In this document: positions 8,014 through 63,683 of the stretch, in pieces
Position numbering within the stretch: position 1 is the first letter of the stretch
Layout of the letters: the number at the start of each line of letters is the position of its first letter
Origin: a virus
Taxonomy: Duplodnaviria > Caudoviricetes
Virus record (IMG/VR): IMGVR_UViG_2939702853_000004
Span: 1 to 64,000 of that record
DNA: 64,000 nucleotides
Strand: one strand, 5' to 3'
The notes under the pieces: model-generated
What the model was told of the DNA's origin: nothing
What the model saw: the letters and a program-made list of their open reading frames with translations, nothing else
The model's database searches: none
Made by a program: the position numbers and the translations under genes

Positions 8014-8090
8014 AGTTGGTTACCTCGCTTTCCTTTTAAAATATTGATTTTATTTAGACCGAACTTGCTTAACTTCACCTCCTTCAGCCC

Positions 8091-8159
8091 GTTACTTCAT
8101 AGAGAATAATCGACTCAATTATATAATGAAGTACATATAATTATTCTCTATGAAGTAAC
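8091..8159. repeat. Perfect 20-bp inverted repeat between phage spoVK and dnaE
   Basis: GTTACTTCATAGAGAATAAT (8091-8110) and ATTATTCTCTATGAAGTAAC (8140-8159). Confidence 0.9.
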
Positions 8160-8170
8160 ACAGTGCTCAA

Positions 8171-9148
8171 TTATTGTGATATGAAAATTTCATTCTTATC
8201 AATGTCTTTAATTGAATCTGTTGATATGTCTCTTGGTAAAATATCCATTAAATTTTGTTTTGATATTTTGACACGTCTGCTCATTATCCTGACAGCCTGA
8301 TGCCGAATCGCTTTTTCGATCACATTGCGGACATAACGCGCGTTGCTGAAATTTAATCTACTGTCCTTTTCAATCTGAATTATTTCCTTTAACTTAATCA
8401 TTGCGTCAGTGGTGAGATTGTAATCTTTTTCAACTGCCATTTTAACAGCAATTAGCATTAGCTCGTCTGTTGTGTAGTCCTTAAAATCAATCTGAATTGG
8501 AAATCTAGACGGAAGGCCAGTATTTGTCTTAAGAAACATCCCCATTTCATCGGGATATCCAGCAAGTATTATTATCAAATCGTCACTTCTATCCTCCATT
8601 ACTTTTACAAGACAATCTATCGCCTCCTTTCCAAAATCCTTATCGCCACCTCTCGCCAAGCTATAAGCTTCATCAATGAAAAGAATTCCCCCCATTGCTT
8701 TTTTGACCAGATCTCGTGTCTTTTGAGCCGTGTGCCCAATGTATTCTCCAACTAAGTCTGCTCGTTCTACTTCAATTAAATGACCTTTACTCAGAATCCC
8801 CATCTTGTTTAATAATTTTGATGCTATTCTTGCTACTGTCGTTTTCCCCGTACCGGGATTCCCCTTGAAAATCATATGGTAAACTTGGTTGTTACTTTTT
8901 AAACCTTCTTCATTTCTTAGTTTCTGAACCTGTATTAGCGCATAAATTTCAAAAATAAGATCTTTTACCTTTTCAAGTCCAATCATTTCCTCTAGTCCTC
9001 GGAAAATGTCTGCTGCTGTTTCGTAATGATTACTGGTTAATGCGACTTCTTCGTTTTGATCAGATATTGCATCATAGGCATCTTGACTTTTAAATACAAC
9101 ATTAATTCGTGATTCATTAACAGTAATTTTTCTGGAGCTTTCATCCAC
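8171..9148 (-). CDS. spoVK: Phage-encoded full-length SpoVK-like AAA+ ATPase
   Basis: HMIFKGNPGTGKTTVAR, GHLIEVERADLVGEYIGHTAQKTRDLVKKAMGGILFIDEAYSLARGG, FSNARYVRNVIEKAIRHQAVR. RBS GAGGTG 6 nt before GTG at 9148. Confidence 0.93.
   Translation of the reverse strand: MDESSRKITVNESRINVVFKSQDAYDAISDQNEEVALTSNHYETAADIFRGLEEMIGLEKVKDLIFEIYALIQVQKLRNEEGLKSNNQVYHMIFKGNPGTGKTTVARIASKLLNKMGILSKGHLIEVERADLVGEYIGHTAQKTRDLVKKAMGGILFIDEAYSLARGGDKDFGKEAIDCLVKVMEDRSDDLIIILAGYPDEMGMFLKTNTGLPSRFPIQIDFKDYTTDELMLIAVKMAVEKDYNLTTDAMIKLKEIIQIEKDSRLNFSNARYVRNVIEKAIRHQAVRIMSRRVKISKQNLMDILPRDISTDSIKDIDKNEIFISQ
8291..8350. repeat. 60-bp exact direct repeat shared with the host spoVK fragment (1492-1551)
   Basis: gacagcctgatgccgaatcgctttttcgatcacattgcggacataacgcgcgttgctgaa is identical at both loci; the flanks diverge immediately. 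Confidence 0.95.
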
Positions 9149-9168
9149 AGTAATCACCTCGTTGAGAC

Positions 9169-9198
9169 AGTATATGCCTTTACGTGACTACAACATGC
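9169..9198 (-). promoter_or_regulatory. Putative sporulation (sigma-E-type) promoter of phage spoVK
   Basis: Minus strand GCATGTT-N15-CATATACT resembles the sigma-E consensus (kCATAtt-N15-CATAcanT), about 20 nt upstream of the start codon. Confidence 0.6.
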
Positions 9199-9254
9199 AA
9201 ATAAGTTTGTTCAAATAGTTAATCTGATTAATTATTTATTTGTTTTATGTATTT

Positions 9255-9270: not shown

Positions 9271-9542
9271 TATAAACCTATAAATTCATCTAAACTTTTA
9301 TCAAGCGCTTCTTCCGATGAATCAATTAACTCGAATTCTCCTGTTGTTTCATCTGACATATCTAATTCAATTTGGCTACCCAAAATCTCAGGCTTTCTAC
9401 CTTTATGGCTAAATAAAAATTGTCTTAATGCTTCTCTGACAATATCGCTTTCATCATAGTAAACGGGCAATAGAGATAACGCCTTTCTTATATCATCATC
9501 TTTTTTGTCTCTCAGTCTAGCGCTAACTATTCTCTTCCCCAT
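9270..9542 (-). CDS. Ribbon-helix-helix DNA-binding protein (ParR-like adaptor)
   Basis: IVSARL...DDDIRKAL...SDIVREALRQF pattern, acidic tail, overlaps the parM stop. Confidence 0.65.
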   Translation of the reverse strand: MGKRIVSARLRDKKDDDIRKALSLLPVYYDESDIVREALRQFLFSHKGRKPEILGSQIELDMSDETTGEFELIDSSEEALDKSLDEFIGL

Positions 9543-10492
9543 AGCCGCACCCCAACTTTTTCATATCCTCTTATTTGAGCCAGTTGGTCAAAGAGAATTT
9601 TATTATTGAAATTGAGTGTATCGAAAATATGATGTGCTGCACCTCCACCAATTAAATAATAATCAAAATTTATGTTTAATCCATCCGCCTCATTTTGAAT
9701 TTGAATTGCTAAGGATTTGAATGCTTTAGCTATTAGTGGCTTAATGTTAACCCCTTCGTAAATGCCGCTCATAACTATTTTATCCATCTCATAAATAGCT
9801 GGAGCTTGTCCTACTAGATTTTGTATATATTTTCTCAATAGTTTATATGCTTTTTCCACACCCAATAGTAAACTCGTAGATTCTTTCATGATTTCAAGTT
9901 TATCGAGTCCAAGTAGATTTAAGGTGTAAAATCCCAGATCAATCACTAGTATCTTCTTTTTGGCTATATGAACCTTTTCAATTTTACCTTTTATATTAAG
10001 CAGGTAATCCATTGCTATTCCATACCCTTGTGGCACAATCTTATATTTAATTATGTTTAGGCTAATTTCCGAATAACGTCCTCGTCCTTTTTTAATACTG
10101 TATGTACTATTGCTACTTATTTTATCGAGCATCTTTTCCATATCGCTTTTCTGATCGAAATAGAATGAAACAGGTAGTCCAGTAACCATCTTAAATGGGT
10201 TGTTCCCATTCAAATAACCAAGCCCAGTTTTCAATAGCACCTCTGATGTCATAGCCTCACTCTTATTGTTTTTAAGGGTAAAATATTTGATCTCGCTATG
10301 TCTGAGTGCAAGGTCGCCAATAAATAGCTGTTCATTGTAAAAGAAATCATTAGGCTTTATATTCTCATCAAACATCGGTTGTGTTTCACCTGATATTGAG
10401 GGTTGAAGATATAGCCTGTTTCCTCTTTTCCCTTTAGTCCAACTAAATCCTAAATCAAATACACTTAAGTCCTCAACAACAGTTGAAGCCAT
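9527..10492 (-). CDS. ParM/StbA-family actin-like ATPase
   Basis: Phosphate-1 DLGFSWTK, VTGLP, VPQGYG, phosphate-2 IDLGFYTLN, adenosine motif IGGGA. Confidence 0.88.
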   Translation of the reverse strand: MASTVVEDLSVFDLGFSWTKGKRGNRLYLQPSISGETQPMFDENIKPNDFFYNEQLFIGDLALRHSEIKYFTLKNNKSEAMTSEVLLKTGLGYLNGNNPFKMVTGLPVSFYFDQKSDMEKMLDKISSNSTYSIKKGRGRYSEISLNIIKYKIVPQGYGIAMDYLLNIKGKIEKVHIAKKKILVIDLGFYTLNLLGLDKLEIMKESTSLLLGVEKAYKLLRKYIQNLVGQAPAIYEMDKIVMSGIYEGVNIKPLIAKAFKSLAIQIQNEADGLNINFDYYLIGGGAAHHIFDTLNFNNKILFDQLAQIRGYEKVGVRLWGRE

Positions 10493-10714
10493 GATATAAC
10501 CTCCTCATACAATTAACATCATACGACGACATTAGCATACAGTGTCATAAGATGTAATACATTTGATAAATTCATTATATCACACCTTCTAACTATTGTA
10601 TATATTTTAATTATTTTTGTATATAAAATCAGGATTTTACGTAGAAATCACTATCATAAAATCCCTATAAACATTAAGTTTTTTGATTTTCTTATATTGA
10701 TTTATCGGACAAAT

Positions 10715-12122: not shown

Positions 12123-13487
12123 GTGTATTATCGATCATCAAAAATGATCATCCTCCGCTTGATAATATTCTGTGGAACTGTTTATTTGCCATTGCCATAA
12201 CTTGCTTATGTATTTTGCGTATTGCTCATCTGTTATTTGTTTTGAATCTTTTTTATTGGTCATAATTTCCATGTATTCTTGAATTCTTATGCCCACGACC
12301 TCCCCATTCAAAACTCAAGTTCGCAACCACCAATACCAATATCTAAATATCTTTCTCCTTTGTCGTCTTCTATAATTGTAAATGAGGCTTTATCAAGATG
12401 GTACCCTTTACATTGATATCCATCGGTAATTCTAACTTCTAAATCATTCAAGCCATCAGTCCTTTGAAGAACCCTTATTAGATCTTTAATGTTCATCTGT
12501 TGCCACCTTTCTTGATCAAAGTCGCCTTTTATTGTGGTTCAAAATAACTTTCAACTTTTTTGGAATTGCCGCCTAGATACATTTTGATCTCATTTAATAT
12601 TCTTATAGTATCTCCAAATGGTTCCTTCATGTGTGGAGAATATTCTATGGCAGAATCCGTTGCTGCTAATGTACACAGTTTTTTATCTAATTCATTAAAC
12701 AAGTCACCCAATACACTACCTTCCATGTTTCTCTCTCCAATCTTCGTAAAATTCATCTCTTACACGATTATTTTGTACTTAATTCGATTTCACGCTGAAG
12801 AATGTTTCTCACTTCTTGTAACTCTTTCTGATCTTTTTTCAGATTAGCAATGTGATAAACCATTTTCTTTGTTTGTTCAAGAGTTTCATAGTCTTTGATT
12901 TTAAACTGAAGACTAAATAATTTATCTTCAATTGCTTGAAACGCTACCCATCTTTGACCAGTGGTTAAGTCCATATTCTGTCTCCTCTTTTTCGTAAAGT
13001 GCATCTTTTACTTACATAGCGCTTCGATTGACTTAATTAATTCCTGCTTATCAACACAGACTTCTCTGTCTCCTAGTTTTATTGTCAACTCCAAAGAATC
13101 ACGATAAGACTGAAAATCAATTGTTTCAGTTGAATATGAGTTGTAACTATCAGTTAGTAAATTGAGCGTTATTTTCATCTGCGCGCCCTCCGTAAAAATA
13201 CTCAGATTTGGCAAGTTCGACCCTATTGTCAGATAAACTTGGAAAAAGGTAATCCTTATTAAATACTGTTTTGTAGAATACCCAAAAAACTTTCATTTTT
13301 ATGTTTACGTTAAACTCAACAATAGCTCCAGCTCTTTCCCAATATGTTGTTTTATTCTTATGGATGATTTTATATTTCTTATTACCATGATCATAATAAT
13401 GAACTTCTTTCTGAAGACTCATCTAAACCCTCTTTCCTTATAAAATATGAGTTTCACTTATTTATTATAGTAAAAGATTTTGGACAG

Positions 13488-14258
13488 TTATTTTTCATTA
13501 GTGCGTTTCGGGACTCGATTCGTGTATTCTTTTGGAATTTGATTAAATTCATAATTATTCCCATATAGCTCTCTAGCCTTATAATTATGAGCAATTGCGG
13601 CATCTATTTTCTCATCGTATGTACCCAAGCAGATCGTTCTTTTATTTTTATCAACTATATATGCTGCCCACTTTTCACTTTTTGTTTTTCTTACTCCCAC
13701 AAAGCCAGAAGTTGTCTTTGACCTTAAATTGGTTTTGTGTTTTTCCCAATCTTCTCTGCTCATATATTCTACGTCTTCAATAATTGCAAATTCGCCATGA
13801 AATTCTTTCGCATAATAATTTCTGGAATTTATCGCTGCCTTTAAATTGTTGAAGCTACCTATATAAAAAGGCTTTCCTTTATCATCTCTTATTCTTGCTT
13901 GCCAACTCTCAGTCTTACTTTTGTTGTTGTTCTTAAAAATACCATGATATCCAGAGGAAACATTATTTTTCTTTACATTTCGTTCATTTTCAACTCTCAA
14001 ACACAATCTTAAATTTTCTTTTCGGTTATCTAGTCCCTTTCGGTTGATATGATCAACTTCAAAATTAATAATATCTATTCCTGAAGCCTTCATAATTAAG
14101 CGATGCATATATTCGCCTCTGCTGGTCTTTGCATAATTTTGTTCCTGACTGTTTCTGTATTTGGGATACCATTTATACGAATTTATCATTTCATAATCTT
14201 CATCATCCACAAGAGCATAGATATGCTTTTGGTTCCCACTCATAAATACTTTTTTCAC
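13488..14258 (-). CDS. HNH homing endonuclease with AP2 DNA-binding domains
   Basis: ALVDDEDY, MHRLIM, VDHINRKGLDNRKENLR, and two AP2 repeats (SGYHGI...W.A.I; SGFVGV...WAAYI...LGTY). Confidence 0.88.
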   Translation of the reverse strand: MKKVFMSGNQKHIYALVDDEDYEMINSYKWYPKYRNSQEQNYAKTSRGEYMHRLIMKASGIDIINFEVDHINRKGLDNRKENLRLCLRVENERNVKKNNVSSGYHGIFKNNNKSKTESWQARIRDDKGKPFYIGSFNNLKAAINSRNYYAKEFHGEFAIIEDVEYMSREDWEKHKTNLRSKTTSGFVGVRKTKSEKWAAYIVDKNKRTICLGTYDEKIDAAIAHNYKARELYGNNYEFNQIPKEYTNRVPKRTNEK

Positions 14259-14320
14259 ACTGAATCCCTCTCAATATTTAATAAAACAAGTGTTTTACCG
14301 TAATGCGTATTTATATTTAA

Positions 14321-16150
14321 TCAAGCCAACGCTAATCCATTAATTAGACAATCATACAGGTCTTTTGGTCTTTCGACTTTATCAAAATCCATTAGATTAA
14401 TGGCTCGAACAATCTCTTTTAGGTTGCATAGTAAGAATTTGTAGTCATTGATATCTAAATTCTCATCGTTGCTTTCTCTAAGTCTACTGTTATCAATTAC
14501 TGTTCTATCTATATATACTTTATTATTCAGGTAATCGTGTACGGCTACAAATTCATCCTCGATCTTTTCAATTGTATGGTTTAGAACATTGATTTGTGTT
14601 TGTTTGAGTACCATAACGTCACCGATAGAAAACACATTCCTATTGAACCCAATCATCCGACTAACCATATCTAGCAACATCAAAGCTCTGCTTTCTTTTT
14701 GACTCAACTCGGTGTTGGAAATCGATGCTTTAATCAATGTATTCTCAGTTAATTCTGAGATATGCACAATGTTTTGCTCTTTCCCTAGAGCCTCTAATAT
14801 GCTACTTTCCAGTTTGTTTCTTGATACAATTACCTTTAATTTGTAATGCTCTGCAATTTTAAATTTCTGTTCTTGTTCAACAATTTGATCAAATGATAGC
14901 CAGAATACTGGTTCAGAATTAAAGTCAATTTGTTGACCCTTTCTTTCTTCGATCTTATCATCGTCAATTTCCGGTTCACTTCGTCCACCAGCAGATCCTT
15001 CTCTCCCACCCCAAGTCGAAACTCCTTCAGCTTTAGGCGCCTTGCGTTTTACTTGTTGAACAAATTCTATCTCTTTATGATTTGACTCAGATTGCTTAGC
15101 CGCTTCTGATTTAATAAAGACTTCATATTGATTGACACTTCTGATTTCTGGATTCTTTCTTTTAGTCAAAGCGATCTTATTGAGGTATTCGGAGTCATTT
15201 TGATTCTCAGTATCAAACACCAAAAAGGTCATCTCATTCTTCAATTTTTCCTTATCTACATTCCAAGAGATAGCATCAATATGATTTTCGATGTGCCTCT
15301 GTTCTCCATATAGGAAACTGTGATTGGCAAGCTCTTTAATGTATTTGGACACTTCTTTTAAAAACTCAAAATATTTATCATCTCTGATAATATCCTTACG
15401 GTCTGGAGAGGTAAGATTAAGCGTCTTATCATTGATGTGTAAATCGCCTTTTACATAATAGTAGCTATCAAGTTTCGTCACTAATCTACCCTTATAGAAT
15501 ACTTTCAAATCTTGGCTAAACCCTGAGTTCAAAGAAACCCAGCCTTTAATCTTGTCAGAATCAATTACTTTTGAGAACACACTACCATCAGTATCAGTCA
15601 AATTCATTTTTTGTTGAAGTTTACCATCGCAATATACATTTAGTTCATGTATGTATTTGCCCAACAATTCAATTCTTTCTCGAATCAGAGATGTCGAAAC
15701 CTCATTAAAATCAAAATTATTCAATATCAACTTGAAACCATTATATGTATTATCAGTCTCAGTTACTTCTATGTTTGTTTTGTTGTTTTGAATCATCTCG
15801 CCAACATTAAAGATGATATGTTTATTTCCAGTCAGCACTTCAATGTGATCGCTTACGGTTATGTTACTGAAAAACCCCATTCCAAACGGTGATTCTGATT
15901 TCTGAATGTCATCGTCCCATTCAGATTCTGCAATTGAGAAAAGAGCTTGTGGGTTTAATAATGTCTGACCATTATTTTCAATCGTAACCTTATCGTTGTG
16001 GGGGTCTACCGAAACCCTTACTTCCGTTGCCTTAGCCCTCTGTGCATTTTGAATATCCTCATCCAGAAAAGACAATTTATCTTTAAAAGTGCTTTGACGA
16101 AGCAGCTTGAGTTGATTGATTACATTTACTTTGATTTCAACGTTATTCAT
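14321..16150 (-). CDS. GHKL (HSP90/MORC-like) ATPase-domain protein
   Basis: N-box EDIQNAQRA, ENNG G1-like box, PFGMGFFS G2 box; long uncharacterised C-terminus. Confidence 0.75.
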   Translation of the reverse strand: MNNVEIKVNVINQLKLLRQSTFKDKLSFLDEDIQNAQRAKATEVRVSVDPHNDKVTIENNGQTLLNPQALFSIAESEWDDDIQKSESPFGMGFFSNITVSDHIEVLTGNKHIIFNVGEMIQNNKTNIEVTETDNTYNGFKLILNNFDFNEVSTSLIRERIELLGKYIHELNVYCDGKLQQKMNLTDTDGSVFSKVIDSDKIKGWVSLNSGFSQDLKVFYKGRLVTKLDSYYYVKGDLHINDKTLNLTSPDRKDIIRDDKYFEFLKEVSKYIKELANHSFLYGEQRHIENHIDAISWNVDKEKLKNEMTFLVFDTENQNDSEYLNKIALTKRKNPEIRSVNQYEVFIKSEAAKQSESNHKEIEFVQQVKRKAPKAEGVSTWGGREGSAGGRSEPEIDDDKIEERKGQQIDFNSEPVFWLSFDQIVEQEQKFKIAEHYKLKVIVSRNKLESSILEALGKEQNIVHISELTENTLIKASISNTELSQKESRALMLLDMVSRMIGFNRNVFSIGDVMVLKQTQINVLNHTIEKIEDEFVAVHDYLNNKVYIDRTVIDNSRLRESNDENLDINDYKFLLCNLKEIVRAINLMDFDKVERPKDLYDCLINGLALA

Positions 16151-16200
16151 TTATCCTCTTCCTTTCTTAGTAAAACAGGTATTTTAGAAGGTTACACTCA

Positions 16201-16380
16201 CTAATCCGTAATGCCTCCAATTTCCGCCTTACACGAAGGGCAAACGTGGGCAGCACAATCTCTATATTCGGGGTCAGAAATGCTCCCTATTTCGCCTTTA
16301 AACACTTCCATTGTCGCTTTATCCCAATCACGATTCCAATTCTTTTCTCCACACTCTGGACATTTTGCTTTGAGTTTCAT
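16201..16380 (-). CDS. Small zinc-ribbon protein (59 aa, absent from the ORF track)
   Basis: MKLKAKCPECG...HVCPSCKAEIGGITD with RBS AGGAGG; the only gene between repeats 16171 and 16425. Confidence 0.75.
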   Translation of the reverse strand: MKLKAKCPECGEKNWNRDWDKATMEVFKGEIGSISDPEYRDCAAHVCPSCKAEIGGITD

Positions 16381-17864
16381 TCTTTTACTCCTCCTACCTA
16401 CTTCATTATTAGTTCCAATCTTTATAAAACTAGACTTTTATGATCAATTGTAAGCTCATTAATCTTATTTTCTAAAATCTTTAATGTTGATATTCCCGCC
16501 TGCTTCATTATAGTCAGCAAGGGTTCGCTTAATGCTGTCCAACATGATATTACAGTTCTCTTTGCTTGGGTTTTGTGAAATGTTGTAGAGCATATTAGAT
16601 AATCCACGCATAGTAACTTCTAAGTAACTCATTGTTTGATATTCTCCTTCTCATATTCATCTGTATGTTGATAGCCGATCTGCACAAAAGATCCATCAAT
16701 ATATGTAGTAATTTTATATTCATTTAATAAAGCACATACTGCATTCTTCTTGCTGACTTCTTTAAACATAACTCTCTTACCTTTTTTAAGCTTTTTTATG
16801 ATTGTTAGAATTTCATTCATTGTCATTCCCCTCCTTTGAGATATCTTCTTCGATTACCTTTATGGAGATTTCAAATTTATACCTTTTTCCTGACTCAGTT
16901 AACCCATCTAACAAGTCATTTGGATAAACCATATACAATCCTTTGTTAAATACTGCCTTATTAAATTTATTGGGTCGTCTTCCGGTGATTTGTTTAAAAA
17001 CAATTTTGTCTACATCAAAACAAAATGCTTCGTGATCTCCACTTGGATAACCATTGAATATGAATTGCTTTTCTTTCATGTTCGTGCCTCCAATAATTCA
17101 GGATTATCGTGAATGTTACCAATTCATTTCTTCCAAACTAAATAGTTTTTTATCGCAGTTTTTGCAGTAGGCAACCTTTCCGTTCTTATGCTTTAAATGC
17201 TCATAATACTCGCCATTTTCTGCCTCTGTTCCATCAAAGTGATAACTATATCTTGTTTTACCAACAACGTAGTCTTTGGTGTAATATCCATCATCACTAT
17301 CGCAATAAGGACATTTTTCAATTGGTGCTTTACTCATAACTTTTTATTCTCCATTTCTATTAGCAGCCGCCGTTTTCGCAAGCGATTGTCTCCAAAGTAT
17401 CTTCAGCCTCCGCTAATTGATCAGCAGTTTCGTAAATAATCTCTAGTGCCTTAGCTACTGTAACTCGCATTGTACTGTGTTCAATTTCTTCTCCAATTGA
17501 ATATCGATACATTTTATTTATGATTAAATCCTTTTCAGACTTGGTCATGAGTCATTCCCCTTTTAATAGTCTTAATAAAATTAGATTTTTATCTCGTTCT
17601 TAATTTCTATTTTAATTTGTTCAAATAATTCTATTGCTTTTTGTTGAGTTCCTTTAGAGAACATTGACAGACTGATATATTCTGTTTCTGAACACTCCAA
17701 TGTTTTTCCAAATAATTTCCCCATCGAGATATCAACTTTAATTTTTGCACTTCCATTAAGTTCATTATCTTCGCCATAATAATTTTCACTACTAAGTGAA
17801 ACACTAATCAGTTCACAATCCACACTACTTTTCATTGAATCATCTCCTTATTTGTTTGCGTAGT

Positions 17865-18783: not shown

Positions 18784-19572
18784 TACCTTGTTATATGTAT
18801 TGTGTATTTTGATAAAAGACGGCTTTTACGAAGAGCTACACTAGCAGTTTCCCTTCGAGTCGATCATATGCATTTTTAACGGTCTCACGAATTTCTATGT
18901 ATTTGTCATAGTTCTTAGTCAAATCAATCACTTTTCCGTTTTGAATTGTAAGCTGGAGGTGATAATACTGTATATATTTTTCGCCATCATGTTCAGCAAA
19001 CTTAGTCCCTAATGCAACTGCCCTTTTAATTTTATACTCAATATCAGTGATTGAATCACATTTTAGATAACTAACTGGGCAAAGCTCTTCATATTGTTCA
19101 ATAACCTTATTGCTAACTTTCATCCGATCATCTCCTATGTATTTATTTTGTTTTGTACCAAGTGTTTGCATAGAGCATATCAGTTTCTGAGAATTCTGTG
19201 TAGAATTGATTATGTTTATTTGATTGATCGTGTCCATCTTTAACACCCAATTCATAGCACATTCGCCTGTGACCTTCTCTGACCCCCTCAAATGCTTTGC
19301 TCCAAAATAGCTTATGTATAATTGACTCAAACACTTCTACTTCACCTTCCTTCCAGTTAGATTAACAAACTTACCGAACTTATCAATTTTATAAGGTCGA
19401 TTAGAATGTTGCTGAAATTCCACTAATTCATCATATGTCTCTTCCGTTGGTTTAAATTCGAAGCCATTGAAGCTAGTTTTTTCACCTACGAGAAATGTCG
19501 TTGATCTTGGCTCATCATCCACCCAACAGATATTTAATAGTATTTCAGCTTCTTTTGTTAACTTCATTTAAA

Positions 19573-20900: not shown

Positions 20901-21428
20901 TTTATAATTTTTCTCCTTTTTAATGTTATATATAGTTTCTTTTGTAACGTTATATTCAATAGCTAAATCATCAGCCTTAACACCACTTTTTAATTTTTTT
21001 CGTATATTTGTAATTTCATTGTCATTAAATAATGCGTTTTTTGGTCTTCCTTGTGATTTCCGAGCTATACTAGCGCAAAGATGTCTTATGTATTTTGGTT
21101 TATCCATATTATTTTCTGAGTGAGTTCCCATAACTATATTTTCGATTCGTATATTTTCTGTATTTGCATCTAAGTGACGAACAACCTTTCCATCTTCAAA
21201 AGATTTTTCTCCATAGAAACAATATGCAGCAAACTTATGAACAGGTACTCCATAAATACCAGATTGAGTAAAATCAACCTTAATAGAAAACGTTGGGTAT
21301 CTTTGCCTACCTCTCTTCTTTACTGCCAAGGGGCATCCTTTTAATCCGATTAATTTACCATCAACCGTAACTCTATATCCTTTTTCATAAGCTAGGATTA
21401 TTGCTTTTCGCATACTACCATTTTTCAT
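20901..21428 (-). CDS. HNH endonuclease with C-terminal HTH, with no stop codon before thyX
   Basis: VHKFAAYCFYG...VVRHLDANTENIRIENIVMGTHSEN; HTH LAIEYNVTKETIYNIK. Confidence 0.8.
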
Positions 21429-46709: not shown

Positions 46710-46741
46710 TTGATCAAATTGAACTTTTACTCAAAAGGATC

Positions 46742-51219: not shown

Positions 51220-51690
51220 TGTTTTATCAACCTTTTAAAAGAATTGTTTCATCAAATCATTATTAATTAAAAATTATTCCTACAAGTTCCATGTAAAGCG
51301 AAAATATTAATAACATACCTGAAAGACCAATACCCCAAACTAAAATAATTACAATAAGATATAAAAAAGATATTTTCAAATCAAAATTTTTCGGATTCGA
51401 TGCAAAGATCATTCCACCAATAATGAGCAATGAAAATACCATTAAAAGTGTTGTTAGTAAAAACAGGACGGACAACTGAAAAAGATTTAGATCTAGTATC
51501 TTCCCTAGCGAAAGATTCGAATAAAAGTAAACTCCAGATACACCGAGTATAGTAAAAAGACTACTTACGATCCCTAACTTTTCCGATGCACTTCCCTTAG
51601 AAAATTCTAGCCACAACTGTTCAAAAAATTTTTCTTTTAATTTAACTTCCTCATTCATTCCTTGTACTCATTCCTCATAAAAGTGTTATT

Positions 51691-52410
51691 TTACATTTTG
51701 TAGGTTGTGTGAGTTATAATCTTGCGGATTGCACTAGGCGTAACATCAAATTTTTCAGCAATTGTTTTGGTGGGCACTCCTTGTTTGTCTAAATTTCTTA
51801 TTTCTATTATTTCGTCATCATTAAATTTTTTCCCGAATTTATATTGCCTTTCGTACCATTTATTTAAATGTGCAAAATCATCGGGTTTAAAATTAAATTC
51901 GGGGATGCAATACGAAATTAATTCATATATTTCTCCTGTTTCATTGTACTCACGGTATTTAGTTAAAGCTCCAATTAATCCGTTTTCCTCCATTACTTTT
52001 AAATTAAAATCGGCACAAATTTGTTCTTTGTTCCATTTCATTTTATCGAAAACAAGCCAGCGGATAGCCTGTTTAATATCTTCTTTTTTTGTCCAAGTGT
52101 TATTACCTGCCCGAGTTAGTTCCCAAGGTTTAATATCCCAGTCAGGATATACATATCTTAAAATATCATAGGGGCTGTCATTAAATAGTTTTTGAGTACC
52201 ACCGCGTAATTTCCATTTAACAAAAAAATGTTTATTGAAATTCTGCAATACATCTTGTTTTGTCCAAACCAGTCTCTCTTCAAAAAGATAAAGCAGCAAA
52301 GATTTCAAATTTTCTTTCCCATATTCTACTGGATTCCAAGTGCCATCTGGGAATTTCTTTCTTTTCCCGTCAAGAATATCAACGTATATTGACAATAAAA
52401 ACACACTCAC
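51691..52410 (-). CDS. DUF4046-like protein with C-terminal HTH
   Basis: IY..IL.GKRKKFP.GTW and F..SPY......YP...KPWE repeats; only gene between repeats 51678 and 52435. Confidence 0.6.
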   Translation of the reverse strand: MSVFLLSIYVDILDGKRKKFPDGTWNPVEYGKENLKSLLLYLFEERLVWTKQDVLQNFNKHFFVKWKLRGGTQKLFNDSPYDILRYVYPDWDIKPWELTRAGNNTWTKKEDIKQAIRWLVFDKMKWNKEQICADFNLKVMEENGLIGALTKYREYNETGEIYELISYCIPEFNFKPDDFAHLNKWYERQYKFGKKFNDDEIIEIRNLDKQGVPTKTIAEKFDVTPSAIRKIITHTTYKM

Positions 52411-52759
52411 TTTTATGTTAGCCCTCCTCTTATATAAAATTATCTTTTTACTTATCGTCTATTATGCAGCAACTCAATTTTATCAATTTTTGATTTTAAC
52501 TCAACCCAACATTCAGGAACCCAATTGCTAACTTCTAATCCTCTGTAAGCGCTAATCTCTTTATTTCCTTTTTTCTTCATTACCACCGAACCCGAACCGA
52601 TAAATGGACATGTCCAACCTTTGTAGTCACCAATATTTTTATAGATAAGATCAATCTCTTCTTGTCTCATCTGTGCTCCTCCTTGCTAACTTATGATAAC
52701 AATATTATACAACATTTCCCTATGTATTTCTCTCTAATATCTCACTCTTTATATAATAC

Positions 52760-53206: not shown

Positions 53207-53725
53207 TATAGTGTACAAGAATTGAATTAACTATTCAACACTAGAGTACTTGAACATGCTCCCATCTGCATCGATTAATACTTTTAGTCCAACATATTCG
53301 TTATCTATGTATAATTCAAACTCAGTGCCTTTGTAATCGGTTAGAAGCGCATATGAAGGAATATTACCATAGTTCCTCGTGTACGCTTCTCCTGTAGGCA
53401 ATTCCAAACGTAGAACAATGTGATTCCCCATGTGGTTAGTCTTCATGTAAATACGAAATACATTGTCTGTTTTAGGCGGGAATTGATATTGTATATTGGT
53501 TTTCTGTTTTGCCATTATGTATTATCCTCTCTTGGTAAAACGATGCTTTTACTTTAACTTACTTAGGAACAATTATTTCATGATGCAATACAACACAGTC
53601 AGCATACTCATTAACTCCTATCATCTCATCTAAAGGAGTAAAACTATCAAGGCTTCCATTCACACAGTAACCTACACTAGAGTCAGGGTTGCACTTTTAA
53701 AGAACTTTGATTAGATCTCTTACTT

Positions 53726-55721: not shown

Positions 55722-55782
55722 TTTAACTCACACCCTTCTATGGTATTATACACGAAAGGCATGAAACAATTAAATAGGATGC

Positions 55783-56187
55783 TCATTGTGTCTCTAATTT
55801 AAAGTCGTATTGTGGCTTTAATGCTTTGCCCACCTTTCTTGCATCTCTACAACAGTTACCAGTACCACCCTTCGTCCCATCCCAAGCAGCAACAACAATT
55901 CGTGATTTATCTACCATGTATTCATTTCTTTTTTGCATTTCGCTACATGATACTCGCCAATTGGTACTCCCTCTACACCATACAGTGGCAGCTCGTCTAG
56001 ATAAACGACTTCATCTGCTGTATCTAGCATCTTCTTATACCACAGATGAGTTTCCCTGTCTGTCCACTTTATTGGCTGATTTTTAAATGGTGCAGCAACA
56101 ATATTGATTATGTGGGGAAGCACTTTTTCTTCATTCCTTGTACTGTCCAAAAGGCTATCTGGTCAAACCCGATTGCACCACCTGATA
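55783..56187 (-). pseudogene. 5'-truncated, frameshifted YspA/DUF1273 (SLOG) gene
   Basis: FISGGAIGFDQ, APFKNQPIKW, QKRNEYMVD and WDGTKGGTGNC are spread over different frames; the remnant starts exactly at repeat 56188. Confidence 0.8.
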
Positions 56188-56195
56188 TAAAATGT

Positions 56196-56735
56196 TCATT
56201 TTATCAACTTCATAATATCAACTGATGTGTCTATGTATGTTTTGTTGTCATAAATTAAAAAGTCTCTCCATTTATTCGCAAAGCCTTTTGCCTCATTTAA
56301 GGTATCAAAACCCTTGATATGAGTAGAATACGTAACTCCCGATTTTTCATATTCAATGAAGTCTTGATGATATCTGTATTTCTTTCCTGCAAACCAAGGA
56401 TCAATATAAGTACTTGTTCTATAGTCCCAAGGTTCCTTATATTGCTCCCACGTCTCAATTGGAAGTGGGACTTCACATTCTGCCCCTGCTACTATGACAG
56501 AATACTTTTTTCTGAAATAGTCTGATTTTGCATTTTGTCTTTTGCTTTCTGCGTGTTTTCTAATTGCTATTTGAAAATAAACAATAGGAGTTCGATACAG
56601 GAACTGTCTCCAGTAAGTAAAGTTCTTATAATGCTGCGGCTTGTCTTTGTTTAAAACCCAATCACTATCCATATGATATGTTAGATCTTTTTGAAGCCAC
56701 CAAGATTTACTGTCTATAATTTCATTGATATCCAT
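56196..56735 (-). CDS. Hypothetical phage protein
   Basis: 179 aa; only gene between repeats 56188 and 56754; RBS GGAGG. Confidence 0.75.
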   Translation of the reverse strand: MDINEIIDSKSWWLQKDLTYHMDSDWVLNKDKPQHYKNFTYWRQFLYRTPIVYFQIAIRKHAESKRQNAKSDYFRKKYSVIVAGAECEVPLPIETWEQYKEPWDYRTSTYIDPWFAGKKYRYHQDFIEYEKSGVTYSTHIKGFDTLNEAKGFANKWRDFLIYDNKTYIDTSVDIMKLIK

Positions 56736-58449
56736 AGTACCTCCAGCTTTCTATAAAATATGTATTTTAAAGACTTTGCCTTATAGTTTTCTTCCGCATA
56801 CGGGACAAAAATATATTTTAACTCCAAATAATGAACACTTAATACTGCGATTTCCAACTTCACTATCCTCTAAATAATTGCAACTATTAATAAAAACCGT
56901 ATAATCGCCTTTACCGTTGCTCATTAGTGGCTCCCTGTCTTCCGTCGGCCTTCCGGTACAGTGCTTACAAATATATTTTTCTTTAATCATTATCTTTCAC
57001 CGCGTAAGTATTCAAAATATTCTTGTATTATGTTTTCTATGCAAGGAAGTCCACCTTCTAAGTTGCCCAGATTAGAGCTGATCCCTCCAAGAAAATATTC
57101 CTGCAAGGCACATCTCGCTCTCATGTTTTTTAGTTCGTTTAATGCTCTACTAATCAACATATCATCATCTTCAGGAGTTGCAGGAATCTTAAGTGCGCTA
57201 CTTCTATTAATCAGTCTACTTAACGCTGATTGCGCTTCTACCAGATTAACCGGGTCATTATACTGTTTGTCAAACTCTTCTTGCGTCATTCCTATCACTC
57301 CCCATATATATCATTCTTAATCAAACACGCATTTTATAATGATTGTTTCTTCTGATTTATATATTCTTGATATATATCTTCAAAAGCTTCATCTTCTTGC
57401 TTCCACAAAGTTTCTGAGACATCTATTCCATATCCAGCGTTACATCCTTGTCGAAAAAAATAGTAACACAACTGCCTGAATTCATCGTTTTTTTTATGTA
57501 GGGCATGATTTATGGCTCCCACTTATATAATTCGTGGTTATCTTCTACCAACCTGTAAAAGTAAGAACTGTCATCGCCAGAATATTTTTGGTTAAGGAAA
57601 TCGACAATTGCTTTTCCATAGTAATCGCTCACATTCTTACACACTAAAGTATCACTTGCGTTTTCTCTGTTGAAATTATCGCGACTTTAATTATCTTTAT
57701 TTTTTTGCTCTTCTCCTCTTCCTTATAAAACAGACCTTTTATCTACATCCACCAGTATCGTCTCCACCAAAATAATCGGGGTAAGCAACTGTTATATCTA
57801 CTTCTTCGGCAATTCGATAAACTTTAAAGTTTCCAAATTTAGCATTCTTCACTTGTTGAACTCGCGTTACAACAGATTCAGCATCAACTATTTCACAAAC
57901 CTTAGTTACGCCAATATCACCAACAATAATAAATTTCATTTTTCATTGCTCTCCAATCTATGTAATCTTAATAAAAGAACTCATTTAGCTAATTTCTATG
58001 ATCGATTGTCCAAACAACTTCCTTGTGGTTATTACTTTGAGATTGAAATTTCCATCCATTGTTCGTCATCTCTAGAGCATGATTAAGATATTCTTCATAA
58101 TTCTCATATTCATAACTTTTAATTTCATACAAAAGTTTTGGCAAAATACCTTCCTCCTCTATACTTTCATATTTTAATTGTGCAACTTCACAATGATTAG
58201 CTTCTTTGTTGACCATCGACTCTGGAACTAAGTATCCCCTGCAAATCGGACATTTGTCATAATCAACTACCCATTTCTCTCCACAGCCTTCATAGTGAGA
58301 TAGATGAAATAAATGTCTCTTGGGTACTCCAATACATTGATACATTTTACTCACCTCTTTTCTGAATTGTTATGTATCTTTCCATAAATCAATTATAGCA
58401 TCCATCTTATTATATATCAATTAATTTAATTATTTTTGTTTATTAAAAT

Positions 58450-58471
58450 AAAAAACCTCCATTATAGGAGG
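58450..58471 (-). terminator. Rho-independent terminator after gp157
   Basis: CCTCC/GGAGG stem followed by a T run on the minus strand. Confidence 0.65.
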
Positions 58472-58477
58472 CTTGCA

Positions 58478-58990: not shown

Positions 58991-60798
58991 TCTATCTCAT
59001 CCTTCTATATGTATTATGGTAAAATCTATGTTTTACTCAGACCATTCAATCTTATTATTTTTATACTTCTGCATCTCGTCATTTAATTCCCATGCCACAT
59101 CTTTTACGATGCCTTTAATGTTGTATACATTTGTCATTCTTTCAATCCTCAGCATTTGATAGTGACACATACTAATCAATTTCTCTAAATGTGCTACTTT
59201 ATCTTCAAATTTAAAACCATGAGAGAAAAATCGTTTATCTTTAGCAATAGTCCATTCACCATCATCTTCATCAAAATAAATTAAGATTTCCGTGTTAGGA
59301 TGGTATTCATTTTGAAGGATATCCTTCACGATATTGCTTACCTCTTCCTTGTCACTGGTGCATGTTTGATAGCTCATTTATTTTCTCCTCTAAGTAAAGT
59401 TTACATTTTATCTCGTCTTAATGCTATCCAGAATAGAATTAATCCAATCAAAGCAAGCACATATCCTATGGGAAAGAACAAAATCGTAACAATTTTCTCT
59501 CCTCTGCTGAGACCATCAAAGATTGATTTAAACAATAACACATTTTTGCAACTATCAAACATGTCCTGTTCAGTAAATATCAAACACTATTCCTCCCATT
59601 CTAGAGCAATACATCCATATTGACTGCTTTCTTTAAGTACACAACCTTCAGGTGTGCAGGTCATTAGTTTATTGATGTGATCTTGTTTGTCGTGTAGTCT
59701 GATTGATTTGTCTTTGACACTAAAATGTACCGTTCTCTTTGATGGCTTACTGTCTTCGACTCCTAGAAATCCGATCCTCTCGCAACTAAGGGAATAATAG
59801 CTTCTGTCACCATATTTCTTGATACCATCGAATAGACTTCCTTTATACGTTCCTAAGTCCTTCGAACTGCGACCCTCACAATCCCCTTCAGTTGAGAACT
59901 TCCAAATGCCATGAACATCAAAATGTTCTTGTTCCATAGAACTGAGGAGCGCTGTCTTTTCTTCGATTTCTTTACGCAGTCTATCCATTTCACTAAATAC
60001 ACTCATTAACTCGCCTCACTTTAATCTTTGTAAAAGTCCTCTTTTACTTACTTCTATATGTAATCTCAACTGTCTTTTTGTATTCATCCACTCTTTGCCA
60101 CTTAAAGTCTTCAACAAACTCTCTTACATTCACATATTTATTTTGCTTCAGCATGTCAACAATCTTCTCTTGAACTTCTAGTGTCTTTTCAAACTTATAA
60201 AATGCCATCTTAGTCTTACTTCTCTTGAGAAAATAGGGAGCTGTCCCAGTTAAATAACAGTCCCTCCAGAAATGATCGTCATTTGCATATGTACAAACCA
60301 AAAACTCTACGTCACTTTTTTTATTTTGAATCAAATACCTTGCAATATCTTCCGCAATCCATCTAACCATTTGCTCTCTGGTCATCTTACTTTTTCTTCT
60401 CTCAAACCTTTTGTTGACTTTCTCCTTTGTAAAAAAGTAGGCCAAAGGAGTCATTAGCCAATACCAAAAACTCTCCAATTTTCTTTCAAAAAATACTTTG
60501 ATCTGATAAATCTTCACCTGTTCTATTTTCTCCTTTGATCAATGATTTCAAATGTATCTCATCCACCGAAATGAGCACTTTCTAAGTAAAGTTGCGATTT
60601 GATCAGAATTTAATCTTCTCGTATGTGTTCAATCTCTACATCATTTACTTCTTTTAATTCCCACTCTATAATTCCATCGGCATTAAATAACTCATGGTCA
60701 ATCTGACCAATGATATCATCACCATGATTCAATTCTTCTTCGTCGAAAACTATGTATCCTTTAATCTCTACTTTTCTCATATTTTCTCCCTCCCTACT

Positions 60799-61224
60799 TC
60801 ACAATCTTATCGTTTCTACATTCTTAATTGCAAAGAATTCGGGTTGATTATTTGTCTCTTCTGTCCATCTCCAAAAAGTATCTGTTAACATTTTGCCAAG
60901 CAGCCTTTTATCTTCATCTTTAAGTTTATCAAACCAGCCATCAGCAACTTCCCCAACTTGATCATACGTTTGCTCTAATACTTCATCAAGAACGCTATGA
61001 GGTGATAAATTGATTTCTGGATTACTCAACTGCCCAACATCAAATTCACATGCCGTATAATCTTATCAGTCAATATCCATGTTGTCTAAATATTCATCTG
61101 ATGGGTTCTTAAAGAATTCTTTTCCAGCTTCGATAGCTTGCTTCTTGGTATCGTACTCTCCATCTTCGCAGTCCCAATGCTCTTTATCACCAGTGTTATA
61201 CATCCACTTTCCTTTATTGCTCAT
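60799..61224 (-). pseudogene. Hypothetical phage protein with tandem in-frame stops (TGA TAA); paralog of 10715-11107
   Basis: ATG at 61224 with RBS AAGGAG is in frame with the 60799-61029 ORF, interrupted by GAC TGA TAA GAT. Confidence 0.65.
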
Positions 61225-61409
61225 AATCTTCTCCTTTTAATTGCTCAACTTTTGTTGCTATCATCCGGGTTCCGCTGGCTAATATGTAGAATATTTCTTC
61301 CAAATCTTCAAGCGAGTCACTAAAGCCTTCAGCTTCTAAGCTGACCCGATCATTTCCATCAATATTGAGAACAATTTTCTTCAATTGATCACTCCTTTGC
61401 TCCGTAAAA

Positions 61410-62099
61410 TCACGATTCTATAGCAACTGGACTGTTTGGGTAAATTCTATAATAATAATCTTCTAATATTTTTTTGCGTCCAGATATATCTTTAATTGAT
61501 GCCACTAATCCAACATCTACTTGTTGTAATTTAACAATCGCTTCCACTTGTTGATGACTCATAAAATCTCTGATTCCTTGATGTTTCTTTAGGCTATGTT
61601 TCTCTTTAAATTTTTTTGAAGTCATACCGAGCACAATCTTATTTATCATATCTGCTTCGTTGCTGTAATGAAACGGATTCGGATCTTCGTGAGACATTTT
61701 AATCATCGATGTTAATGCTGGATATTCAATTCGTGCCAATTGTCGTTCTTGAATAAACTTTTTCATTTCGTTGAATTTCTCTATGTATTTTATTTTAAAC
61801 TTTATTGCATTCTCACCTGTAAATCCCATTGCTAAAAGTGTAAATCCTTTTTCAGTCAACAAAAATTCAGGGTACTCCTTTCCTCGATCATTTTTATAGG
61901 ATGATTTTATAAAATTAATGTCCCAATCTGACTCCCCAATTTTGGGGAGTGAACTTTGAATATTGGAAATGTCTCTAAGTACATGATCGTGTCGTTTTGC
62001 AAATATTTCACCAACCTTTCTACTACTTACTACTGGAATACCATCAATTGCAGTGATTCCAAATTCGTCTCCCATAATGGTTTTTAATTTTTTACTCAA
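61410..62099 (-). CDS. Rha-family phage regulatory protein
   Basis: VSSRKV...F.KRHDHVLRDI, SYK..RGK.YP...LTEKGFTLLAMGFTG..A.KFK.KYI..FNEM. Confidence 0.92.
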   Translation of the reverse strand: MSKKLKTIMGDEFGITAIDGIPVVSSRKVGEIFAKRHDHVLRDISNIQSSLPKIGESDWDINFIKSSYKNDRGKEYPEFLLTEKGFTLLAMGFTGENAIKFKIKYIEKFNEMKKFIQERQLARIEYPALTSMIKMSHEDPNPFHYSNEADMINKIVLGMTSKKFKEKHSLKKHQGIRDFMSHQQVEAIVKLQQVDVGLVASIKDISGRKKILEDYYYRIYPNSPVAIES

Positions 62100-63683
62100 A
62101 TTCTATTTCCTTTCTATGTAAAATTCTTATTTTATAAAGTTATATGATTGGATCTCCACATTAAATCCATGTATCCGTCTTGACTATCAATTCCCCAATC
62201 TTCAAAAAACGACTCTACTGTTTCTTCCTTGGATATGACTATGAATAAATCCCCAAGCTTACTTATGTATGTTTTTTGAGCTTCGTTTAAGTAGTCGCTT
62301 TTACCTTCCCACCGGACATAGATTTCATCCTTTGAATCATCATCATACACAATATCAATAACGACAATATCGCCATTAGTAAGACGATCAAAAGTGTTTT
62401 GTTTATAGTTATTATCTTCTATAACAGATACTTGATAGTCTGTATTTGCATTTCTATTAACAACAATTGAAAAAGTGTCGCAGGTATCCATAAATCTAAT
62501 GTCGCCATAATGTCGAATAATGCTTTTTTTAATATTGGTGACGCTAAAATTTCCTATGTGGTTAGCCTCAACCGATAAAGATTCACAATTTTCAAAACCA
62601 AATACGATCTCTTTTAATTTTTTCAATTAATCACTCCTTACTTTTATTGGCTCTTGCATTAGCCATCCTATTAGCAGCGGCCTGTCTCTGTTCGGGCGTC
62701 CAGTTACGTCCACTGCTTTTCTTTCGGAATGAAACCTGTTCATAATCTACTTTGTAGTATTTGTTGCCTTCTGCGTCAACCTTGTAAGCTTCAAATCCTG
62801 CTTTCTCCATTTTATTTTGAAGTTTACTTGAAGCAGAGAATATCTCCCACTCATTAGTTTCGTCATTACAAACACACACCGTTTCACGCTCAATCGCCGT
62901 ATAACTCAATAAATATCAACTCCTTCGTTTTTATTTCAACTTCGTCTTACCCTGTTCTGCCAGTATGTAAATTTCATTGCCTACTGGATCGTATCCATAT
63001 ATGACTTTTATCTCTTCATTCTGTTCAACACGAATGATCAAACTTTTACCATCTAAGTCGTCCCATTCAAAGATGGGGACATTTTTAAATAATTTCATTA
63101 TTCACCTCTAGAAAAGGTTAATTTTATTAGTCTCATTTTGTTTTAAAATTGCTTTCTTAAGTGTATTAAAAGCTTTTCGTGCCTTCTTTGAAGTAGGGAC
63201 TTCTTCGTGCAGTGCCGATACTACATGTTCAGTATTTATCAGCTTAACTTTTTCACTTTCCGTTTTTCTACCTTCAAGAAATGCTCCTCTTAATTCAATT
63301 TCTTTCAATGCCTCATCTCTGCTCTTCTCATCATCATATTCAACATCTACCCAATATTCCATTATCCCATCGACTCTATGGACAACCTCTACTATTTCAT
63401 GTTGATTTCCACTAATACTTATAGTTTCACCCTTGTCTAGTAACCTATGGAATTGGTCTGTTTCTTTAAGTGTAGCGAGTTCTGAGTCTTTGACTTTTTT
63501 ATACCCCAAACGCCCATCATTATTCGATTTGTCATTGTATTTAAACTCTTCGTTATCTATGGAGCAACCCCACCAACTTAAAGGTTGATTTCTCTCCATA
63601 TAATAAATTTTCTTAGTGATTCTAGCCTTTATAATACTCTTCATTTAATATGTACCTCCTAGTAAAAGTTTCATTTTACTCAA

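Follow-up and report, generated by a model that had tools for sequence, protein, structure and literature searches.

Palindromic sites with conserved, position-specific cores at the gene junctions of an SPbeta-like prophage are candidate joints for gene exchange between phages

The 64,000-nucleotide stretch analyzed here (IMG/VR record IMGVR_UViG_2939702853_000004, positions 1 to 64,000; hereafter the window) covers the left portion of a low-GC, SPbeta-like prophage of ~176 kb, and its gene junctions are punctuated by copies of a palindrome, TAAAA-N6-TTTTA, which is the subject of this study. The G+C content of the prophage is 33-35%, compared with 46-47% for the host, and the GC break lies at ~2 kb of the window. 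The prophage begins at ~1.7 kb of the window and is split over two contigs, comprising C10 from 56 kb to its end and C11 from 72 kb to its end. At the prophage end lies a gene for a large serine recombinase (Table 1), presumably the integrase, as in SPbeta, which integrates by means of a serine recombinase (PMC8612738). The genes that follow encode DnaE, an AAA protein, an actin-like protein, NrdEF, NrdD and ThyX; further content includes RecJ-like, DnaB-like and ligase genes and many small open reading frames (ORFs), nearly all on the minus strand. Judged by DnaE, the nearest named relatives are vB_BcoS-136, FADO, PBC2, Kirov and Thrax (~55% amino-acid identity), which are Bacillus siphophages of 160-170 kb.

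A preliminary description of this DNA had counted 31 perfect palindromes between positions 8037 and 63678. Our recount gave 34 in that range and one more at 3732, that is, 35 in the window against 0.85 in dinucleotide shuffles (largest value, 4), in agreement with the enrichment proposed there. When up to one mismatch was allowed, 64 matches were found against 20.2 expected, so the ~17 one-mismatch copies reported earlier are real only in part. The genuine ones vary mostly at arm position 2 or 15 (TCAAA, TTTCA, TTTGA). The spacer is strictly 6 bp, since every other spacer from N2 to N10 gave 0 to 2 copies instead of 35, as did the everted form. In gene-junction DNA alone (7.9 kb), we found 27 copies against 0.13 expected, and sites occupy ~45 gene junctions. 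Across the whole genome (5.14 Mb), 62 of the 86 perfect copies fall in the prophage.

The genes at the sites run on the minus strand. A Shine-Dalgarno sequence and a start codon occur within 60 nt downstream of 24 of the 35 sites (median, 21 nt), compared with 18% of random positions, consistent with the earlier placement of the sites between the end of one gene and the next ribosome-binding site. The first arm often doubles as the stop codon of the preceding gene, and the ORF coordinates agree with all 14 cases listed previously, as the ORF table does with the six single-ORF units that had been named. The claim that the nrd-thyX operon and the primase-helicase-ligase block are free of sites is nearly right, except that a perfect site lies at 22240 in the former and a degenerate, conserved one at 46714 in the latter. 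Gene calls were crude, with overextended 5' ends, and counts of sites inside genes were set aside.

On the coding strand, the consensus is R-TAAAA-B-N4-V-TTTTA-Y. The half-sites are mirror-symmetric (R at -1 and Y at +16; not A at 5 and not T at 10) and lie one helical turn apart with dyad symmetry; information content is ~0 beyond -1 and +16, ribosome-site context aside. By eye, the bases at positions 5 and 10 of a given site do not pair, and RNA hairpins are weak (0 to -4.3 kcal/mol), with a minimum free energy of 0 to -0.2 in 4 of 8 tested. Together, the symmetric halves, the unpaired positions 5 and 10 and the weak hairpins suggest that the site is recognized as duplex DNA by a 2-fold symmetric protein. 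Literature searches turned up no description of the motif.

We then compared the prophage with that of G033, a different species of the genus whose genome is complete. The G033 prophage is syntenic and mosaic and occupies the same attachment site; flank homology places it at the same host site, beside a large serine recombinase. Both phages contain 62 perfect sites, and no core is repeated inside either. Of the 62 perfect cores, 38 recur unchanged in the other phage, all of them collinear, whereas a reverse-complement control gave 0. With the wider motif T-N-AAA-N6-TTT-N-A, 65 cores matched (control, 2). Extension to five species yielded collinear same-core chains of 65/67, 27/29, 37/39, 30/31 and 29/30 pairs, compared with control chains of 2, 1, 1, 1 and 1, respectively. 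Comparison with nine IMG/VR relatives of the 48-69 kb stretch added 82 cores shared with our phage (control, 0). Off-diagonal matches between our phage and G033 were few and small. The earlier statement that the 6-bp cores differ from site to site therefore applies within a genome, whereas between phages each core is conserved.

To define orthology independently of the sites, we masked them and searched from one flank only. A site was present at the projected place in 23 cases, in which 134/138 core bases (97%) were identical, whereas the flanking high-scoring segment pairs were 71-93% identical, indicating that the core evolves far more slowly than the adjacent genes. It also changes more slowly than arm position 2. 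In four more distant prophages, those of G016, G058, G066 and G069 (L024-L063), the arms vary at positions 2 and 15, being mostly TGAAA/TCAAA and TTTCA/TTTGA, and the cores are retained; this arm shift may track a change in a putative arm-binding protein. Repeated cores within a genome numbered 3 versus 14.3 expected in six phages, and 0 versus 2.9 in our own, a shortage that is suggestive only, as the compared phages are kin. Cores at a Hamming distance of ≤2 made up 11% of adjacent pairs and 6% of distant ones.

The motif also occurs in more distant phages, with 38 perfect copies in SPbeta (our own count of forward-strand rows), 33 in FADO, 23 in vB_BcoS-136, 23 in PBC2, 26 in phiCD211 and 17 in Perkons. 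By eye, FADO and the window had no exact core in common. The sequence TAAAATTAAGATTTTA is present in vB_BcoS-136, PBC2, FADO and phiCD211 (W03, W04, W01 and W06), whose host genera differ, and vB_BcoS-136 and PBC2 have three neighboring sites in equal order. Some cores recur among these four phages and a few equal those of the prophage studied here; such recurrence may be due to chance.

The DNA between conserved cores is frequently replaced. Identity falls to background (~0.30) just outside the 16-mer, and among 583 same-core pairs from 15 phage pairs, the 40-bp flanks were nonhomologous on both sides in 467, nonhomologous on one side in 77 and homologous on both in 39. Between our phage and G033, ~21 of the 64 intervals between consecutive shared cores lack blastn or tblastx similarity. 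In the window, the dissimilar intervals include 13441-14282, 14282-16425, 32584-33038, 33038-35941, 48880-49415, 59020-60031 and 60031-62119. Coverage of interval 48880-49415 (519 bp) was 0.00 in four relatives that retain both bounding cores.

Conversely, homology tends to end at the sites. In the comparisons by blastn, 17 of 148 homology ends fell within a site (±3 bp) versus 1.9 expected, and in the IMG/VR set 23 of 118 versus 3.0, so that sites catch homology ends 8 to 9 times more often than random. Gene ends with a site had 9.2 homology ends per kb, compared with 2.6 for gene ends without one. The expectation that breakpoints between related phages coincide with sites was thus borne out for a share of the homology ends, which fall on or inside them, but no reordering was seen. 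A one-gene cassette (ORF 57739-57939, within 57726-57987) illustrates the pattern: its blastn identity of 98.2% to L080 begins inside site 57972-57987 and stops 1 nt past site 57726-57741, with unrelated DNA on both sides. Likewise, identity to L084 crosses the arm, the core and the TTT of site 49415, and then stops at the wobble base. Of 197 distinct one-sided junctions, 59 differed solely in the arm next to the nonhomologous flank and 17 solely in the near arm. This bias indicates that the far arm travels with the far flank, the homology edge lying inside the 16-mer.

One site bears a deletion footprint. In G033, the site with the same core as site 56188 precedes an intact 221-amino-acid YspA/SLOG gene (PF06908, E = 2e-22), whose coding sequence holds a look-alike, GGAGT-TGAACG-TTTTA, 449 bp downstream of that site. 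In the window, the YspA homology to G033 begins exactly at the TGAAC of the site 56188 core (mean column identity, 87%); the first ~450 bp, the N-terminal part, are missing, and the remnant contains two 1-bp deletions. Read from the two sequences, this is the product that would be expected if the DNA between a true site and a look-alike within the gene, alike in core and arm, had been deleted, and it implies that repeated cores in one genome would be harmful.

Table 1. Coordinates of the sites and of two associated genes in the window. G033, G016, G058, G066 and G069 are genus relatives; L080, L082 and L084 are IMG/VR relatives.
Feature	Position	Strand	Observation
Large serine recombinase at prophage end	1751-3463	-	Resolvase, Recombinase and Zn_ribbon_recom domains
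Perfect site, core TACTAC (+ strand)	3732-3747		Same core at syntenic place in G033, G058, G069
Perfect site, core TATTGA	8037-8052		Common to G033, G066, G069; both 70-bp flanks unrelated in G033
Perfect site, core TCAGGA	10624-10639		G033 flanks: 35/40 on one side, 15/40 on the other
Degenerate site TAAAG-TGCATC-TTTTA	12995-13010		Arm is stop of ORF 13008-13214; G033 same-core copy perfect
Wobble site (TTTCA arm), core TATGAG	13441-13456		Core also in G033
Perfect site, core CAAGTG	14282-14297		Core in G033, G069
Perfect site, core CAGGTA	16171-16186		Core in G058; in G033, G066 with one arm mismatch
Perfect site, core CTAGAC	16425-16440		Core in 5/5 genus relatives
Perfect site, core TTAGAT	17576-17591		G033 flanks 10/40 versus 39/40
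Perfect site, core GACGGC	18813-18828		Core in G033, G058, G066
Perfect site, core TGGTTG, between nrdF and MazG-like gene	22240-22255		G033 core 6/6, flank-defined orthology
Perfect site, core GAACTG, upstream of nrdD	27752-27767		Motif scan, comparison with G033
Perfect site, core GGTACA	28505-28520		Arm is stop of ORF 28518-29159; core in G033, G016, G069
Perfect site, core TTTGAC	29565-29580		Core in G033, G058, G066, G069
Perfect site, core TACGCC	32584-32599		Interval 32584-33038 unrelated in G033 and G066
Perfect site, core TCTCAC	33038-33053		Interval 33038-35941 unrelated in G033
Perfect site, core GCATTA	35941-35956		Arm is stop of ORF 35954-36175
Perfect site, core TCACCG	36686-36701		Core holds TGA of upstream gene; arm overlaps ATG of next gene
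Perfect site, core TAGTAG	39503-39518		Motif scan, relatives compared
Perfect site, core GTATAT	40562-40577		Core in G033, G016, G058
Perfect site, core CTCTTC	40810-40825		Core in G058, G066; also G009
Perfect site, core TTCAAA	41488-41503		Core in G033, G058, G066, G069
Perfect site, core ACTATA	41898-41913		Core in G033, G058, G066, G069
Wobble site TCAAA-TTGAAC-TTTTA	46714-46729		Core in G033
Wobble site, core TCAACC	48069-48084		Core in G016
Wobble site TCAAA-GTAAAC-TTTTA	48578-48593		Core in G033, G058, G066
Perfect site, core GAAAGA	48880-48895		Arm is stop of ORF 48893-49396
Wobble site (TTTGA), core GGAAAA	49415-49430		Core in 5/5 relatives
Perfect site, core TATTTG	49998-50013		Motif scan, relatives compared
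Perfect site, core GTCATA	50751-50766		Arm is stop of ORF 50764-51219
Perfect site, core GTGTTA	51678-51693		Arm is stop of ORF 51691-52410
Perfect site, core TTATCT	52435-52450		Common to L080, L082, L084
Perfect site, core CGATGC	53536-53551		Recurrent homology end
Perfect site, core GCCCAA	54270-54285		Motif scan, relatives compared
YspA/SLOG pseudogene, beheaded, twice frameshifted	55760-56197	-	Intact G033 gene PF06908
Perfect site, core TGTTCA	56188-56203		YspA/SLOG remnant begins inside site
Perfect site, core TATGTA	56754-56769		Core in G033, G058, G069
Wobble site TCAAA-CACGCA-TTTTA	57321-57336		Arm is stop of ORF 57334-57522; core in G033, G016, G058
Perfect site, core CAGACC	57726-57741		One end of one-gene cassette
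Degenerate site (ATTTA arm), core GAACTC	57972-57987		Opposite end of cassette starting at 57726
Perfect site, core TCTATG	59020-59035		Arm is stop of ORF 59033-59377; core in 5/5 relatives; recurrent homology end
Degenerate site TAAAG-TTTACA-TTTTA	59395-59410		Comparison with L082
Perfect site, core GTCCTC	60031-60046		Arm is stop of ORF 60044-60517
Perfect site, core TTCTTA	62119-62134		Arm is stop of ORF 62132-62626
Perfect site, core GTTTCA	63663-63678		Core in G033, G016, G066

The motif enrichment, the conservation and collinearity of the cores, the replacement of DNA between them, the homology ends at sites and the one deletion footprint suggest that the sites cause the crossovers and that the core has to match between partners. 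On the strength of these sequence comparisons, we consider it reasonably probable that the sites serve as position-specific ("addressed") crossover joints for swapping genes between phages and do not form an integron-like array, whose shuffling is disfavored by the fixed order of the genes. The arms T-N-AAA / TTT-N-A (here mostly TAAAA / TTTTA), common to all copies, would dock one dimeric phage protein on double-stranded DNA, and each junction would be distinguished by its own asymmetric 6-bp core. When related phages meet, by coinfection or by infection of a lysogen, strand exchange would take place inside the 16-mer between copies with the same core. A single crossover would give two full-length, in-register chimeras and a double crossover would replace the cassette between the two sites, even where the flanking genes lack homology. 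Because the cores are unique in a genome, the joints of one phage could not recombine with each other, and such non-cross-reacting joints would keep gene order and avoid deletions.

The preliminary description had supposed a recombinase encoded elsewhere in the phage, and three genes with a tyrosine-recombinase fold (YR1, YR2 and YR3, the last a homologue of MrpR/YopR) were indeed present in the prophage, all outside the window. Recombinase genes are found at a distance of 40-75 kb from the window, with none beside the array. YR1 and YR2 matched PF00589 and phrog_1, retain by eye the R..HxxR..H/W..Y pattern and are apparently intact; a PDB sequence search with both gave no match. They are without an assigned role, since integration is presumably performed by the serine recombinase. 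YR2 is a homologue of YopP, with further homologues in all five genus relatives, FADO and SPbeta (yopP). YR1 is a gene of the late region (tail module), in the C11 portion of the prophage. A FADO match to YR1 (L064) adjoins the tape-measure gene and SPbeta yomM has the same tail-module position; YR1 and yomM showed no BLAST similarity. Each motif-bearing phage examined has at least two PF00589-type genes, according to a PF00589 search or, for SPbeta, to annotation (yomM, yopP and yopR). We speculate that the enzyme could be a phage tyrosine recombinase with a 6-bp overlap, for which the YopP-like YR2 and the tail-module YR1 are candidates, an assignment to which we give somewhat less than an even chance.

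Several observations weigh against addressed crossover joints. The present data tie the sites to no enzyme, and the co-occurrence of the motif with tyrosine recombinases is uninformative because every relative examined has both. YR2 is only 43.5% identical between our phage and G033, the pair with the largest number of shared cores. The conserved arm is only 5-6 bp, and known tyrosine-recombinase binding elements are longer. Single-base changes affect all six core positions evenly and so give no hint of cleavage points. Many homology ends fall away from sites, and the counts lack independence, being drawn from six to fifteen related phages. The YspA deletion and the exact junctions would fit recombination through 11-16 bp of microhomology as well, and laboratory hybrids of SPbeta and phi3T arose mostly from long-homology regions (bioRxiv 10.1101/2020.05.06.055103).

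Some of these points favor an explanation in which the 16-mers are linkers for general recombination (single-strand annealing, microhomology joining or template switching) without a dedicated enzyme, the arms being alike for another reason, such as stop codon/ribosome-site context or protein docking. The exact junctions and the YspA deletion require just 11-16 bp of identity, the arm often supplies the stop codon, no enzyme is linked to the sites, and homologous recombination was the main source of the SPbeta x phi3T laboratory hybrids. However, 16 bases are far below the length that RecA or phage annealing proteins are generally known to handle well. This explanation also accounts neither for dyad-symmetric arms with a strict 6-bp spacer nor for 97% core identity amid drifting or replaced flanks, and we regard it as improbable.

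Alternatively, the sites could dock a dimeric phage protein with a regulatory or architectural role (a stoperator-like roadblock, a 434-type operator layout or ParB/KorB-like loading), and mosaic borders would coincide with them only because they sit at gene ends. Dyad symmetry with half-sites one helical turn apart, ~100 copies at gene junctions and retention of the motif across a wide phage family are all compatible with this, as is the presence of an Xre-type helix-turn-helix (HTH) protein and a ParB-N-domain protein beside YopP in the SPbeta lysogeny operon (PMC8612738). Yet a protein that reads only the arms provides no cause for unique, 97% conserved cores amid unrelated flanks or for the avoidance of repeated cores, and the density of homology ends is 3.5-fold higher where a gene end has a site than where it has none. 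The sites also differ from MrpR operators (PMC10516654). Docking as the sole function is therefore unlikely in our view; a double role, in docking and in crossover, is possible.

The integron-like array of the preliminary description, in which a recombinase excises single-gene circles and reinserts or reorders them among equivalent sites, agrees with the many inter-site units that hold one ORF and with the presence of tyrosine recombinases. The slightly greater similarity of adjacent cores could moreover reflect site duplication on insertion. Against it, order was collinear in all comparisons with almost no off-diagonal matches, unique cores mean that the sites are not interchangeable, 16-bp sites with weak hairpins are unlike attC, and leftover half-sites were not enriched near true sites (99 versus 77 in the control). 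What remains of that proposal is that the sites behave as joints, that their constant inverted arms around a partner-specific 6-bp core are laid out like those of sites that need matching cores, and that tyrosine recombinases are encoded elsewhere in the prophage; the excision and shuffling did not survive, as order is fixed and replacement occurs in place, and we consider such an array very unlikely indeed. A function in RNA, as a translation operator, processing site or terminator immediately ahead of each ribosome-binding site, would suit the median of 21 nt from site end to start codon but is scarcely credible given the weak hairpins, the lack of pairwise covariation of positions 5 and 10 (by eye), the unenriched terminator-like and promoter-like matches and the unique conserved cores, which it leaves unexplained.

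Four specific identities were tried and rejected. For a sigma-A promoter, promoter-like matches were not enriched (73 versus 77.9 in shuffles), none of them lay on a site and no -35 signal was found upstream of the sites. For a terminator or RNA hairpin, folds were weak and terminator-like matches were not enriched (8 versus 5.9). A promoter of YonO was discarded, as YonO uses a single late promoter (PMC5467207). Operators of an MrpR-type repressor (SPBRE), the alternative raised in the preliminary description, did not hold: an MrpR homologue is present, but the MrpR-bound promoters of SPbeta share a AAAAATATGTATATA-like sequence (11-mers) and not the palindrome, and SPbeta has ten peaks in chromatin affinity purification sequencing (ChAP-seq) (PMC10516654) versus 38 perfect palindromes. 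The MrpR/YopR homologue itself is encoded at G000:C10:128503-129501 (L067:10095-11090, minus strand), ~10 kb beyond the window, and matches PDB entries 8a0a (E = 1e-22) and 9rd5 (E = 1e-28). It lies ~40 kb from the YopP homologue, so the two do not form one operon. The only strong sigma-A-type promoter in 46-64 kb (58392-58474, minus strand; TTGATA-17-TATAAT with TG) directly follows a terminator-like hairpin upstream of ORF 57989-58354, away from any palindrome.

Among known systems, the addressed joints proposed here resemble the heterospecific lox and FRT sites of Cre and Flp, which are used in laboratory recombinase-mediated cassette exchange. In those systems, as would be the case for addressed joints, one set of inverted arms serves one protein, the spacer must match, so that unlike spacers do not cross-react, and the DNA between two sites can be exchanged in register. 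The prophage shows the same arms with different spacers in one molecule, its 62 perfect sites having 62 cores. The lox/FRT systems are engineered, however, with 13-bp arms and an 8-bp spacer, whereas here ~100 natural sites with 5-6-bp arms and a 6-bp core are known from sequence only. The dif site of Xer and the pdif sites of Acinetobacter plasmids likewise comprise many short sites with a 6-bp center and flanking modules that vary between related replicons, and the inner arm bases of dif are A-rich and T-rich, as they are here. In contrast, dif has 11-bp XerC/XerD arms, compared with 5-6 conserved bp here, and pdif sites are plasmid borne and rely on the host Xer, whereas the phage encodes its own recombinases. 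We know of no report of position-specific, order-preserving cores in pdif.

T4-type phages carry what are reportedly called promoter-early stem-loops (PeSLs). These and the "linkers" envisaged by Botstein are also short conserved sequences that border small early genes of hyperplastic regions and have been put forward as means of cassette exchange. PeSLs, though, consist of a promoter and a stable hairpin, are alike at all borders and act by homologous recombination, while the palindromes have no sigma-A signal, weak hairpins and unique cores. The stoperators of cluster A mycobacteriophages (L5 gp71) are similar in their dozens of short intergenic copies, often touching stop codons, but they are asymmetric 13-mers of one sequence and orientation bound by the immunity repressor, in contrast to palindromic arms around unique conserved cores. 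SPBRE, bound by MrpR (YopR) in SPbeta, is a repeated element of the same phage family recognized by a protein with a tyrosine-recombinase fold (PMC10516654). It is 15 bp long and present in about ten copies in promoters (PMC10516654), whereas the palindromes stand at small-gene junctions, to which none of the ten peaks was ascribed. Integrons share the logic of a tyrosine recombinase (IntI) and of cassettes bounded by inverted-repeat sites. Their attC sites, however, measure 57-141 bp, act as folded single strands and are interchangeable, as opposed to a conserved unit of 16-18 bp in a fixed order, and their cassettes are inserted at attI, next to intI, whereas no recombinase gene adjoins the array.

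Phage mosaicism is usually attributed to rare illegitimate recombination followed by selection or to homologous exchange in conserved genes. If addressed joints exist, the borders of swapped genes would instead carry a dedicated mark, consisting of common arms and a six-base address that is particular to each junction and more durable than the genes on either side. More tentatively, and with more doubt than confidence, we suggest that SPbeta-like and related large Bacillota siphophages could possess a natural genome-wide grid of ~100 heterospecific sites, at which a phage-encoded recombinase, perhaps of the YopP type, would make core-matched crossovers at gene borders. Coinfecting phages would then reassort single genes in register without flanking homology, a form of phage "sex" at gene resolution. 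Were the process enzyme driven, it would represent a new natural use of site-specific recombination and explain how accessory genes, including those of defense and counterdefense, turn over in very large phages with their order intact. It would also give a function to conserved SPbeta recombinase genes that now have none, and supply ready-made orthogonal sites for genome engineering.

Other features of the window were noted in passing. Among the short off-diagonal matches, positions 1492-1551 resemble the AAA region of the G033 phage and positions 8288-8350 the G033 host flank, which points to a 60-bp patch common to a host gene and the phage AAA gene; the phage's own AAA+ gene is at 8171-9157 (regions concerned, window 1-3663 and 8097-9217). 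Near the prophage end are genes for an actin-like segregation protein of the ALP/ParM type (9527-10492) and a RusA-like resolvase (3755-4327). The thyX ORF (20214-21485) carries an N-terminal fusion to HNH_3 and HTH_7 domains, which could be a homing-endonuclease-type insertion or fusion. A TerC fragment (110 amino acids) adjoins a vWA-TerF-like gene at 33912-35600; the interval that contains these tellurite-resistance-type accessory genes differs entirely in G033.

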